DNA of 10,208 bases from a virus, in the UHGV virus genome UHGV-0247914. One strand, 5' to 3'. The position numbers and the translations under genes are program-made. Positions 5-4,737 of this stretch are shown piece after piece. Within the stretch, counting starts at the first letter, position 1; each line of letters begins with the position of its first letter. The notes under the pieces were generated by a model. That model saw only the letters and a list, made by a program, of their open reading frames with translations, was not told the DNA's origin and searched no databases.

Positions 5-30
5 TCACTCTCCTTTGATGCGAATGCCAG
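5..30. repeat. Copy 1 of a 26-bp direct repeat at the 3' end of a gene (junction module)
   Basis: tcactctcctttgatgcGaatgccag at 5-30 matches 499-524 with one mismatch. On the minus strand it encodes the C-terminal I-x-I-K-G-E, the TGA stop and an AAGGAG that serves as RBS for the next gene. Confidence 0.85.
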
Positions 31-1576: not shown

Positions 1577-1579
1577 GAT

Positions 1580-1594
1580 TTACCCCTGAGGTAA
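1580..1594. promoter_or_regulatory. Operator-like palindrome TTACC-CCTGA-GGTAA
   Basis: Perfect inverted-repeat half-sites TTACC/GGTAA with a 5-bp spacer. Overlaps the RBS region of the gene at 1232..1576. Confidence 0.5.
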
Positions 1595-1635
1595 TTAAAA
1601 ACCACATAAGACACGAAATCAATAGATCTTAGAAC

Positions 1636-1663
1636 ATTTTATTACCTAGCAGGTAATTATCAA
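1636..1663 (-). promoter_or_regulatory. Putative sigma70 promoter for the accessory cassette, with the operator in its spacer
   Basis: Minus strand: -35 TTGATA (complement of 1658-1663), 16-bp spacer, -10 TAAAAT (complement of 1636-1641). The spacer is the palindrome at 1642-1656. Confidence 0.4.
1642..1656. promoter_or_regulatory. Operator-like palindrome TTACC-TAGCA-GGTAA
   Basis: Perfect half-sites; with flanks aTTACCtagcaGGTAAt. Lies between the putative -35 and -10. Confidence 0.5.
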
Positions 1664-1668
1664 GACGT

Positions 1669-1690
1669 AAAAAAATGCGCTATCGCGCTG
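1669..1690 (-). terminator. Weak intrinsic terminator after the P homolog
   Basis: Minus-strand RNA GCGC-GAUA-GCGC (4-bp GC stem) followed by AUUUUUUU, immediately after the TAA stop at 1694-1696. Confidence 0.35.
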
Positions 1691-1693
1691 GTA

Positions 1694-2479: not shown

Positions 2480-3267
2480 AAGAAATCCTCCCATGCTTCA
2501 GGGCTGTTCCAGTGCGGAACGTTGTTATCAGGTAATGTTGATTGCTTCTGTCTGCTAATCTGCAGCCGCCTTGCCAGCTTCTGCTCCCACTGTGCCTGAT
2601 GGTATGCCTTACCCTCAGCCATCCAGTAAATTCTGAACTCTGCAAGTTCCTGTGCCGTTGGCAGACTGTCCAGGTAGATCCCCTGCAATGAGCTTTTCCG
2701 AAGAAAGTCATCTGATGGCTGCCATTGTTCATGCATGACAAATTTGCCTAATTGCCCTGGCCCACCAGGAGGAACAAAGTTATTCATCACGGCGTTGTTT
2801 GCGCCGGGGTCATGAGGCACAGAATCCCCGCTTTTTGTCCTGCTCTCCCTCTCTTGGTTAAATGACTGGTTATATGACTGGTTCTGGATCCCGTTTTTGG
2901 GATCATTCAACATCCCGTTTTTGGGTATATTCCCGTTTTCGGGTATATTCCCGTTTTCGGGTTCATTGCCCCACTCCCGGTTGCCTTTAATGTTCCCGTT
3001 TTTGGTTATATTAAGAGAGAAAACCCGCACTCTTTTTGTCGCTCCCTTTCTCTCTCCGGTATCTGAAATAAGCCCCATTTTCATGAGCGATATAAGCCCG
3101 GCCTGCACGGTTTTTTTATTCAGGCAAGTGTCTTTAACGAGGCGTTCTATGCTGGGGTAGCAGAGGTTATATTCATCGGCTCTGTCAGCCATCGAGAGCA
3201 GTATGAGCTTTAATGATGAGCTACCTGGATCTGTCTCCCAGGCCCAATCTGTTGCATGTCTGCTCAT
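2476..3267 (-). CDS. Replication initiator protein (lambda O-like functional analogue)
   Basis: 263-aa ORF with GGAG 8 nt upstream of ATG 3265-3267. N-terminal region looks like a winged-helix/HTH DNA-binding domain. A low-complexity NGNIPENGNIPKNG linker is encoded by DNA iterons. Sits directly upstream of, and coupled to, the P homolog. Confidence 0.75.
   Translation of the reverse strand: MSRHATDWAWETDPGSSSLKLILLSMADRADEYNLCYPSIERLVKDTCLNKKTVQAGLISLMKMGLISDTGERKGATKRVRVFSLNITKNGNIKGNREWGNEPENGNIPENGNIPKNGMLNDPKNGIQNQSYNQSFNQERESRTKSGDSVPHDPGANNAVMNNFVPPGGPGQLGKFVMHEQWQPSDDFLRKSSLQGIYLDSLPTAQELAEFRIYWMAEGKAYHQAQWEQKLARRLQISRQKQSTLPDNNVPHWNSPEAWEDFL
2889..3012. repeat. Iteron array inside the initiator gene (putative replication origin)
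   Basis: Five copies of TCCCGTTTT(T/C)GG(G/T)T at 2889, 2913, 2931, 2949 and 2994, mostly followed by ATAT. Copies 2-4 are spaced exactly 18 bp apart. Flanked by a TGACTGGTT x2 repeat (2863-2884) and a polypurine/polypyrimidine, moderately AT-rich stretch (3013-3060). Confidence 0.7.
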
Positions 3268-3889: not shown

Positions 3890-3918
3890 ATAATAAATAT
3901 TCACCCATAAGGTAACAA
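3890..3918 (-). promoter_or_regulatory. Putative PR-like promoter for the cro-like operon
   Basis: Minus strand: -35 TTGTTA (complement of 3913-3918), 17-bp spacer, -10 TATTAT (complement of 3890-3895). The palindrome at 3901-3915 lies in the spacer. Confidence 0.4.
3901..3915. promoter_or_regulatory. Operator-like palindrome TcACC-CATAA-GGTAA (one mismatch)
   Basis: First of three sites in the divergent intergenic region, phased like an OR1-OR2-OR3 cluster. Confidence 0.45.
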
Positions 3919-3931
3919 AAATCAAGGATAG

Positions 3932-3946
3932 TTACCTATGGGGTGC
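3932..3946. promoter_or_regulatory. Operator-like palindrome TTACC-TATGG-GGTgc (two mismatches)
   Basis: Middle site of the divergent cluster and the weakest match. Confidence 0.35.
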
Positions 3947-3948
3947 AT

Positions 3949-3963
3949 TTACCTGTTGGGTAA
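3949..3963. promoter_or_regulatory. Operator-like palindrome TTACC-TGTTG-GGTAA (perfect)
   Basis: Site of the cluster nearest the repressor gene. Confidence 0.5.
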
Positions 3964-4018: not shown

Positions 4019-4603
4019 ATGAAAAGTATCCAGGACGTCCGCAGGCAAAATCTCAACGACTTGATCGACCGTGAATTCAATGGTGTTCAGACGCGGATGG
4101 CAGAAAAACTTGGAACTCAGGCAAATCTGGTAAACCGCTGGGCTCTTGGCAAGAAGGTTATCGGCGACCAGGTTGCGCGAAAAATTGAAGCTGCCGCCAA
4201 TAAACCCCGTAACTGGCTTGATATCGATCGCTCGCTTTCTCAGGAAGGTTTTCAGCCTGTCGGCCCAAGCGACATTGGTCAGCTGGCAGCTCACAACCTG
4301 GAACGCTGGATGAGTGAAAGCCGCGACCTTTCAACTCAGGGAAAACTTCACCGCGCATCCGGCGTCGCCCAGGTGACAATCAGTCGCCTGTTAAACAATG
4401 AGGTCAGCGTTTCCATTTCCACCCTGGAGAATGTTGCATCCGCATTCGGGCGTCACGGATATGAACTACTGATTCACCCGCACGACCCTGCGACTATCAA
4501 CTATGACCGCTCGCGCTACGCATTGTTACCCGAAACCGAGAAAGCAAAGATCGAAAGTTACATTGAATTTGTCATCAACCAGAACGAAAAAAACAAACAA
4601 TAA
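4019..4603 (+). CDS. Repressor-like regulator with two HTH domains (CI position)
   Basis: 194 aa. HTH 1 is about residues 20-70 (TRMAEKLGTQANLVNRWALGKKVIGDQVARKIE); HTH 2 is about residues 110-150 (HRASGVAQVTISRLLNNEVSVSISTLENVASAFG). No S24 peptidase (LexA-like) motifs were seen. First ATG has no good SD within 5-10 nt. Confidence 0.7.
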   Translation: MKSIQDVRRQNLNDLIDREFNGVQTRMAEKLGTQANLVNRWALGKKVIGDQVARKIEAAANKPRNWLDIDRSLSQEGFQPVGPSDIGQLAAHNLERWMSESRDLSTQGKLHRASGVAQVTISRLLNNEVSVSISTLENVASAFGRHGYELLIHPHDPATINYDRSRYALLPETEKAKIESYIEFVINQNEKNKQ

Positions 4604-4624
4604 AATCATACTCTTCAGTAAGTA

Positions 4625-4650
4625 AGCCGCCTTCTGGCGGCTTTTTTATT
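4625..4650 (+). terminator. Rho-independent terminator after the repressor gene
   Basis: AGCCGCC-TTCT-GGCGGCT (7-bp stem) followed by TTTTTTATT. Confidence 0.8.
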
Positions 4651-4660
4651 GCCTATACTA

Positions 4661-4675
4661 TTACCTAATGGGTAA
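4661..4675. promoter_or_regulatory. Operator-like palindrome TTACC-TAATG-GGTAA (perfect)
   Basis: With flanks aTTACCtaatgGGTAAt; 20 bp upstream of the -35 of the PL-like promoter. Confidence 0.5.
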
Positions 4676-4694: not shown

Positions 4695-4723
4695 TTGACA
4701 TCAAACCAAATACGCATAATTAT
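4695..4723 (+). promoter_or_regulatory. Putative PL-like promoter for the recombination/integration operon
   Basis: Consensus -35 TTGACA at 4695-4700, 17-bp spacer, -10-like AATTAT at 4718-4723. The palindrome at 4723-4737 abuts the -10 and covers the start region. Confidence 0.5.
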
Positions 4724-4737
4724 TACCTCAACGGTAA
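4723..4737. promoter_or_regulatory. Operator-like palindrome TTACC-TCAAC-GGTAA (perfect)
   Basis: Overlaps the -10/+1 region of the PL-like promoter. Confidence 0.5.

Follow-up and report, generated by a model that had tools for sequence, protein, structure and literature searches.

Two described phages come closest to the element studied here. The RefSeq record of Salmonella phage epsilon15 (NC_004775.2) labels seven palindromic sites 'repressor, lysogeny', including sites ahead of the terminase, head and tail-fibre genes. The palindrome reads ATTACC-N5-GGTAAT and spans 15-17 base pairs (bp); as far as could be established, its annotation as a repressor site is a prediction. In Salmonella phage SPC32H, the Rep/Ant switch is represented by solved structures (PDB 5d50, 5d4z). 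In papers citing the SPC32H work, Rep is described as a tetramer on palindromic sites (PMC9638917) that is taken apart by an antirepressor, with the DNA-binding pairs contributed by different dimers (PMC9638917; PMC9986798). Here we analyze 10,208 nucleotides (nt) of UHGV virus genome UHGV-0247914, which we call the window, and within it the intergenic gap at 1577-1693 that separates the replication gene P from a nuclease gene of the DUF1064 family. The window corresponds to the early region of a temperate podophage of the phiV10/epsilon15 type (Uetakevirus), and most of it is ~98% identical to Escherichia phages BP9, PAS61 and phiV10 (Uetakevirus, epsilon15 group).

We found that the gap probably functions as a self-contained regulatory junction, in which a terminator is followed by a sigma-70 promoter placed between two operators of the repressor Rep. 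We call the operators op1 (upstream) and op2 (downstream), and the conserved promoter between them P-b. An initial annotation had assigned the gap a weak terminator, two palindromes and a different promoter, here P-a, whose spacer holds op1; the terminator, the P-a hexamers and both palindromes all lie on the minus strand where they had been placed (Table 1). The epsilon15 record marks the counterpart of op1 (35906-35922) as a protein_bind repressor site. It stands after a replication gene and before a resolvase gene, with a hairpin-T7 ahead of it and TAAAAT behind it, as in the window. Already on record for epsilon15 are the motif, the family to which the repressor belongs and one repressor site in this place. 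That record marks op1 only and leaves op2, the promoter and the sites in the rep/cro gap unmarked, and the epsilon15 flanks differ from those of the window, with only a DnaT-like gene upstream and a RuvC-like gene downstream. SPC32H has the same pair of sites, at 35972 and 36034.

The palindromes are far too frequent to be chance occurrences. The motif is a 15-bp palindrome, TTACC-N5-GGTAA, and exact copies number 5 in the 10.2 kb of the window against 0.01 expected, a count that 0 of 200 shuffled sequences reached. Allowing up to two mismatches yields 14 matches against 3.2 expected. The centre is 5 nt long; a search with a 6-nt centre gave no match. The motif also occurs in the gap between rep and cro, where the cro promoter match TTGTTA-17-TATTAT overlaps one of the three operators (3901-3915). 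Because of this shared motif, because the window encodes a cognate Rep with two helix-turn-helix domains, and because the position of op1 is equivalent to that of the annotated epsilon15 site, we infer that op1 and op2 belong to the repressor operator set of epsilon15/phiV10/SPC32H-type phages, with Rep as their predicted ligand.

Residues 1-190 of Rep give a full-length match to the solved SPC32H Rep (PDB 5d50, E 4e-42), and the protein is 100% identical to the repressor of phage vB_EcoP_ZX5, which is reported to act as a repressor when overexpressed (PMC9782041). The ZX5 paper mentions four predicted promoters, their positions not being stated (PMC9782041). The epsilon15 repressor is only 42% identical to Rep. 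A single remote match, to the cI of a Pseudomonas phage, is confined to the N-terminal 65 residues. The cro-like protein weakly resembles the N-terminal domain of Rep and is likely to be a second ligand of the same operators.

A second locus in the window shares the design of the junction. Beyond the rep terminator lies the leftward promoter PL, and in a side-by-side alignment the junction and PL modules match column for column. Both begin with a terminator with a T-tract, followed after ~12-15 nt by operator 1 and an A-tract or T-tract. Both then continue with CTATTGA(c/t), 17 nt, a -10-like hexamer that ends in the first T of operator 2, operator 2 itself and a start codon. The P-b -35 occupies the same column as the TTGACA of PL. 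From this alignment the junction is best described as a paralogue of the PL module.

We then asked how widely this arrangement is kept. The palindrome was mapped in whole or partial genomes of phiV10, epsilon15, SPC32H, PAS61, Tyrion, BUCT554 and Klebsiella phage BUCT711. After the replication genes, op1 and op2 are 62 bp apart, start to start, in the window and in all seven of these relatives (8/8), and the PL pair is also 62 bp apart in the eight phages, except in BUCT711 (L208, 7124-7201), where the distance is 63. A scan of IMG/VR for two palindromes at this spacing returned at least 120 stretches; all module counts given here are counts among the matches listed. In the pooled fixed-gap and variable-gap scans 62 was by far the commonest spacing, although the fixed-gap scan biases the sample towards that value, and 63 was the second commonest in the IMG/VR sample. 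Of the distinct modules, at least 80 belong to the post-replication type and at least 67 to the PL type. The former have the consensus GCGC-N4-GCGC-T7, op1, tAAAAT, CTATTGAtt, 17 nt, TT(T/A)AAT, op2 and ATG.

The genes around the module are far less constant. Its upstream neighbour is lambda-P-like, one of several DnaT-like types, or another gene, and its downstream neighbour is DUF1064 in most cases, RuvC-like in 14 and a third small gene in 2. Since the same module stands between differing flanking genes, the junction has been kept while its neighbours were swapped. The first gene of the unit is nonetheless of the Holliday-junction-resolvase type (DUF1064 or RuvC-like) in nearly all relatives, and the label 'accessory', which the initial annotation gave to the cassette, does not really suit this gene. 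A second sample, of 69 haplotypes, was gathered by DUF1064 protein similarity (at least 97%) and is unbiased as to operators. In these haplotypes the op1 half-sites never change (69 of 69) and the terminator and the two hexamers of P-b change little or not at all, whereas the centre and 5' flank of op1 are highly variable.

The terminator comes first in the module. It had been called weak, which is fair for a 4-bp stem with a local fold of -8.5 kcal/mol (z -1.8). Our terminator scan, whose rule requires at least 5 pairs, does not list the hairpin at 1688-1677. It is nevertheless identical in 69 of 69 close haplotypes, and GCGC-N4-GCGC with T7 is kept, with a variable loop, in at least 80 distinct relatives. 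The phiV10 RefSeq record carries a terminator annotation at the equivalent site.

Which promoter serves the junction is the main point on which readings differ. All bit scores below rest on an approximate sigma-70 matrix built from consensus frequencies. P-b (TTGATT-17-TTTAAT) matches 9 of 12 consensus positions; the second position of its -10 is not A, which is why the consensus scan does not list it, but at 9.5 bits it lies above the 99.9th percentile of window positions. Its -35 is conserved in 68 and its -10 in 67 of the 69 haplotypes. TTGA occurs at +34 from op1, in one orientation exactly, in 164 of the 166 modules listed. In the 80 distinct modules listed, P-b reaches 8.6 +/- 1.3 bits and ranks first in 69; for the P-a position the figures are 5.5 +/- 4.7 bits and 11. 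The -10 varies within the family (TTTAAT, TTAAAT, ATAAAT, CAGTAT). In epsilon15 the scan itself calls a promoter between the operators, TTGAAA-18-TAAATT, in the P-b register. In a divergent lineage (L071, L077, L099) a T-rich stretch replaces TAAAAT after op1, and TTGAAA-17-CAGTAT directly adjoins op2, with a RuvC-like gene next. Another motif that recurs, cATAT(g/a)TGGTT, is found in the spacers of both PL and P-b (window 1600-1610, minus strand, cttATGTGGTTtt). It is also seen near the tailspike, head, lysis and post-cro promoters of relatives: in SPC32H (L003) near 3240, 20085 and 24850, in PAS61 (L004) near 33090 and in Tyrion (L005) near 21830, 26470 and 35395. At some of these sites it is followed by GGTAA and a -10-like TA..AT.

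The most serious alternative, which we regard as unlikely though well short of negligible, is that P-a is the sole working promoter. Under this reading op2 would be a roadblock near +42 over the ribosome-binding site, and CTATTGAtt and TGTGGTTTTTAA would be features of the leader. P-a matches 10 of 12 consensus positions (TTGATA-16-TAAAAT), is one of only four promoter-like scan matches in the window, and with 14.0 bits scores above every other site there. It would give an ordinary leader of ~53 nt. Its -10 keeps the key A and T in 69 of the 80 listed distinct relatives (TAAAAT in 52, CAAAAT in 17), and GGTAA followed directly by TA(A/G)AAT is also found in the tailspike promoter region of relatives. 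The -35, however, falls in the most variable columns of the locus. TTGATA is present in 9 of the 69 near-identical haplotypes, the others having TCGATA, TCAATA, TATATG and further variants, and in only 4 of the 80 listed distinct modules, where TCAATA, TTAATG, TGTATA, TCGATA and others take its place. Over the 290 nt examined around the site in the 69 haplotypes, few columns vary more than the T and G of its TTG. The scan makes no promoter call at the P-a position in phiV10 or epsilon15, and the divergent lineage has no -10 hexamer there at all. Finally, P-a alone leaves unexplained why TTGA, 17 nt and a -10-like hexamer stand in the exact register of PL. The conserved TAAAAT/CAAAAT would sit at about -53 to -48 of P-b, a place for an UP-like A-tract; equally, it may serve as the -10 of a P-a of variable strength.

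We read P-b as the probable promoter of the family, to which the allele in the window would add a strong P-a; in this phage both may fire. The promoter of the initial annotation thus survives in part: a promoter does accompany the palindromes, but the -35 chosen for it is the variable one, and the conserved P-b lies between the operators. Inside the P-a spacer, op1 occupies 15 of the 16 positions.

Several points weigh against placing a regulated P-b promoter behind a terminator at this junction. P-a is the best sigma-70 match in the window and its -10 is conserved (69 of the 80 listed), so it may be the active promoter here. In most relatives the -10 of P-b does not have the highly conserved A at its second position, and the P-b leader would be only ~11 nt long, with the Shine-Dalgarno sequence nearly at the 5' end. 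The hairpin stem has only 4 bp, which makes it a putative terminator of uncertain efficiency. The half-sites are the same across all relatives: they do not differ in any of the 37 phage records that hold a Rep homologue, even where its identity falls to 42%, and co-variation of repressor and operator consequently gives no information. In addition, the rule used to orient modules demanded TTGA, so the figure of 80 of 80 for that motif is partly circular; the pattern behind the 164/166 count did not require TTGA, and neither that count nor the protein-retrieved set of 69 haplotypes is affected.

Some of these points would also suit a junction without any promoter, in which the palindromes are roadblocks that help a weak terminator in the lysogen and the resolvase unit is expressed by lytic read-through from upstream early promoters. 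Read-through of a 4-bp hairpin is likely, the P-b -10 hexamer is defective, and in relatives no convincing sigma-70 promoter accompanies the palindromes that precede the terminase gene. We nevertheless consider this improbable. TTGA at a fixed distance from op1, with its 17-nt spacer and -10-like hexamer, aligns with the consensus PL promoter TTGACA-17-AATTAT; the near-consensus P-a is also present in the window; and a conserved terminator directly before the operators suggests that transcription restarts there rather than being merely blocked.

Very little probability attaches to the view that the palindromes work as RNA, as hairpins that RNase III would process or that would mask the ribosome-binding site. 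Each could form a 5-bp hairpin, op2 includes the Shine-Dalgarno sequence, and the epsilon15 record has RNase III sites marked elsewhere between genes. Yet the half-site sequence itself is invariant, beyond what complementarity would require, and one-mismatch copies (TCACC...GGTAA, GTACC...GGTAA, TTACC...GGTGA) show no compensating change on the opposite arm. The palindrome is found in either orientation and in divergent promoter regions, one of them the rep/cro gap, which is not transcribed, and a search against Rfam found no matching RNA family in the window. We give equally little credence to a bare recombination linker for module exchange with no regulatory role, even though several unrelated gene types flank the module on either side and short boundary repeats occur elsewhere in the window (5-30, 499-524), because a linker has no need of immunity-type palindromes, a fixed 62-bp spacing, promoter hexamers or a terminator, and the variation within the module is confined to positions that a repressor would not read.

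How might the junction work if it is the regulated terminator-promoter unit that we favor? The hairpin-T7 would stop part of the incoming transcription and so insulate the unit from the replication genes, and the sigma-70 promoter would restart transcription into the resolvase-type gene and the genes beyond it. In a lysogen, Rep is predicted to hold op1, at about -62 of P-b and in the spacer of P-a, together with op2, at about +1 of P-b, and would thereby close P-a and P-b alike. The second palindrome had been reported to overlap the ribosome-binding site of the first gene, and op2 does contain its AGGGG; in most relatives the centre of op2 is purine-rich. A separation of 62 bp is about six helical turns, so op1 and op2 face the same side of the helix, and a single Rep tetramer could bridge the two in the manner of LacI, with a main and an auxiliary operator. 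On induction, an antirepressor would inactivate Rep and the unit would be transcribed from its own promoter, and the cro-like protein might later bind the same operators. An antirepressor gene was not found within the window; in relatives it adjoins the tailspike gene. A LexA-box-like CTGTATnnnnATACAG lies ~45 nt from a palindrome in the antirepressor/tailspike gap of SPC32H (L003, 19960-19990), PAS61 (L004, 32990-33020) and Tyrion (L005, 21720-21750), which fits SOS control of the antirepressor in those relatives.

Dual-operator repression of this kind has well-known precedents. Tetrameric LacI acts through O1 with O3, and GalR through OE at -60.5 and OI at +53.5. The junction resembles these systems in having a main operator at the start, an auxiliary operator ~60 bp upstream and helical phasing between the two, and Rep is reported to be tetrameric in papers that cite the SPC32H work. 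Two operators in helical phase around one promoter are found both at the junction and at PL. However, the proteins are unrelated, and a loop of 62 bp, centre to centre, would be at the short end of known loops; looping here is a prediction from spacing.

Comparison with other phages places the junction outside two familiar designs. As in lambda, the repressor and cro genes of the window diverge from a gap that holds operators, the leftward promoter is under operator control, and the replication genes precede a block that includes a junction resolvase. In lambda, however, neither an operator nor a promoter separates P from the nin genes, which are reached by N-dependent antitermination, and the initial annotation was right that lambda has nothing equivalent at this position. 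In the window, by contrast, every segment of the rightward arm is equipped with a terminator, an operator and a promoter of its own, so that the lambda-type nin arrangement, with no promoter or operator after P, is absent; N-like genes and nut sites were not searched for in this comparison. Rep also differs from the lambda repressor in having two helix-turn-helix domains and no RecA-cleavable domain. The stoperators bound by gp71 of mycobacteriophage L5 are asymmetric sites that depend on orientation and block elongation from within transcription units. The sites of the present group are likewise spread genome-wide, beyond the immunity region, but those in the window are perfect intergenic palindromes that head units beside promoter elements.

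The downstream genes very probably form a separate unit under immunity control, given that a terminator comes first and that a promoter accompanies palindromes common to the rep/cro region. This agrees with the earlier proposal that three genes are separately wired, except that the unit headed by the DUF1064 gene is longer: it extends past three genes and off the window. Nor is the promoter the third of its kind, as had been thought. A further operator and promoter module follows the cro terminator (3578-3518), and the palindrome recurs in relatives at the head of the terminase, head, tailspike, lysis and integrase units. The post-cro module precedes the 66-amino-acid (aa) gene and the replication genes, which it would drive, and the same layout is seen in Tyrion and BUCT711. 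Because this module has its own operator, the rightward arm is split into at least three operator-bearing units. In the whole genomes of relatives, palindromes lie ahead of the terminase, a head gene, the lysis genes and the integrase, as well as between the antirepressor and tailspike genes, and the repressor may act on every transcription unit in these phages.

In near-identical phages no spots of the locus vary more than the centre and 5' flank of op1. Among the 69 haplotypes, the op1 centre (1647-1651) has 29 alleles in 5 nt, and the 5' flank (1657-1667; 10 nt upstream) has up to 16 alleles per 5-nt window, against a median of 2 for all 5-nt windows. Per-site diversity at the centre and flank is 0.47-0.59, ~4-5 times what third codon positions in the flanking genes average (0.10-0.12), although single third positions peak at 0.54-0.58. 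At PL the same two spots (4651-4658, 4665-4669) are the most variable at its operator 1. The cause could be a higher mutation rate where the repressor is bound to DNA, or selection adjusting the strength or leakiness of the promoter in individual phages. We also considered a hairpin between the op1 flank and the op1 centre, but 1.8-1.9 of 5 possible pairs against 1.5 in shuffled sequences (z ~3.5, from related sequences) was unconvincing.

The coordinates of the junction, the related modules and the surrounding genes are collected in Table 1.

Table 1. Features of the window and palindrome positions in three relatives (positions are those of the window unless a phage is named).
Feature	Position	Strand	Remarks
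Putative weak intrinsic terminator after P	1688-1669	-	GCGC (1688-1685), loop GATA, GCGC (1680-1677), A, T7 (1675-1669)
P-a -35, TTGATA	1663-1658	-	Promoter of the initial annotation; consensus scan
Predicted operator op1, TTACCTGCTAGGTAA	1656-1642		Exact palindrome; fills 15/16 spacer positions of P-a; ~62 bp upstream of inferred P-b start
P-a -10, TAAAAT	1641-1636	-	Promoter of the initial annotation, or part of an A-tract UP-like element of P-b
P-b -35, TTGATT	1622-1617	-	Inside conserved block CTATTGAtt
P-b -10, TTTAAT	1599-1594	-	17-nt spacer; final T is first base of op2, as at PL
Predicted operator op2, TTACCTCAGGGGTAA	1594-1580		Exact palindrome; covers inferred P-b start; holds Shine-Dalgarno AGGGG 1587-1583
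Gene P stop codon	1696-1694	-	Opens intergenic gap 1693-1577
PL module	operator 4661-4675; TTGACA 4695-4700; AATTAT 4718-4723; operator 4723-4737	+	17 nt between hexamers; scan and palindrome search
Repressor-gene terminator	4624-4643		Precedes PL module
Post-cro module	terminator 3612-3593; operator 3578-3564; TTGATC 3546-3541; CAAAAT 3523-3518	-	Operator GTACCTCAAAGGTAA; 17 nt between hexamers
Three operators in rep/cro gap	3901-3915, 3932-3946, 3949-3963		
Repressor gene, Rep	4019-4603	+	Two helix-turn-helix domains, no peptidase domain
cro-like gene	3864-3634	-	Small helix-turn-helix protein, 76 aa; PHROG 35 'transcriptional repressor', E 6e-13
66-aa gene	3483-3283	-	
DnaT-like initiator gene	3267-2476	-	
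Replication gene P	2494-1694	-	Lambda P family; Pfam PF06992, E 1.5e-56
DUF1064 gene	1576-1232	-	ATG at 1576; first gene of unit; Holliday-junction-resolvase-type nuclease; Pfam PF06356; PHROG 190 'Holliday junction resolvase', E 7e-43
Ea22-like gene	1170-499	-	
Mom-like gene	517-5	-	DNA-modification protein, 170 aa; PHROG 1384, E 4e-42; Pfam Mom below cut-off; RefSeq name 'XF1762 family'
Palindromes, SPC32H (L003)	12, 3175, 20013, 24782, 26960		
Palindromes, PAS61 (L004)	238, 12433, 12451, 15611, 33044		
Palindromes, Tyrion (L005)	67, 85, 3969, 21393, 21776, 26408, 28568		

The left end of the window, with the Mom-like gene, is not present in phiV10, PAS61 or BP9, and positions 1-1700 are covered to at least 80% by one complete E. 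coli genome only (87% at 95% identity). A 26-nt direct repeat, 96% identical, lies at 5-30 and 499-524, which are two successive minus-strand gene junctions. It includes a ribosome-binding site and a stop/start overlap, and looks like boundary sequence for gene-module exchange.

Could the whole genome be run on one repressor palindrome? In such a scheme about a dozen operators would head every unit (early left, early right, post-cro, post-replication, terminase, head, tailspike, lysis and integrase), tetrameric Rep would shut both paralogous promoter modules by forming 62-bp micro-loops, and a lambda-style antitermination cascade would not be needed. We regard this full picture, to which the local hot spot of variation at the upstream operator of both modules may be added, as speculative, and doubtful as a whole.

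The junction is real but ordinary, being standard in epsilon15/phiV10-type phages, and the gain is incremental. We found no description of the 62-bp pairing, the parallel with PL, the post-cro module or the excess of variation at op1, a statement that leaves the primary epsilon15 and SPC32H literature outside its scope. The series of hairpin-T7, operator, 62 bp, operator and resolvase gene offers a reliable landmark for annotation, and the compact 117-bp fragment is suited to the study of dual-operator repression by an unusual tetrameric Rep. The locus also illustrates that a good consensus match in a single genome, such as TTGATA, can be an accident of one lineage while the conserved promoter lies 41 bp away. 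For the biology of the group, these findings bear on the wiring of common prophages of E. coli and Salmonella, some of which carry O-antigen-modifying genes. Their early region appears to be cut into short units, each with a terminator, a promoter and a repressor site, unlike that of lambda, which is read through by antitermination.

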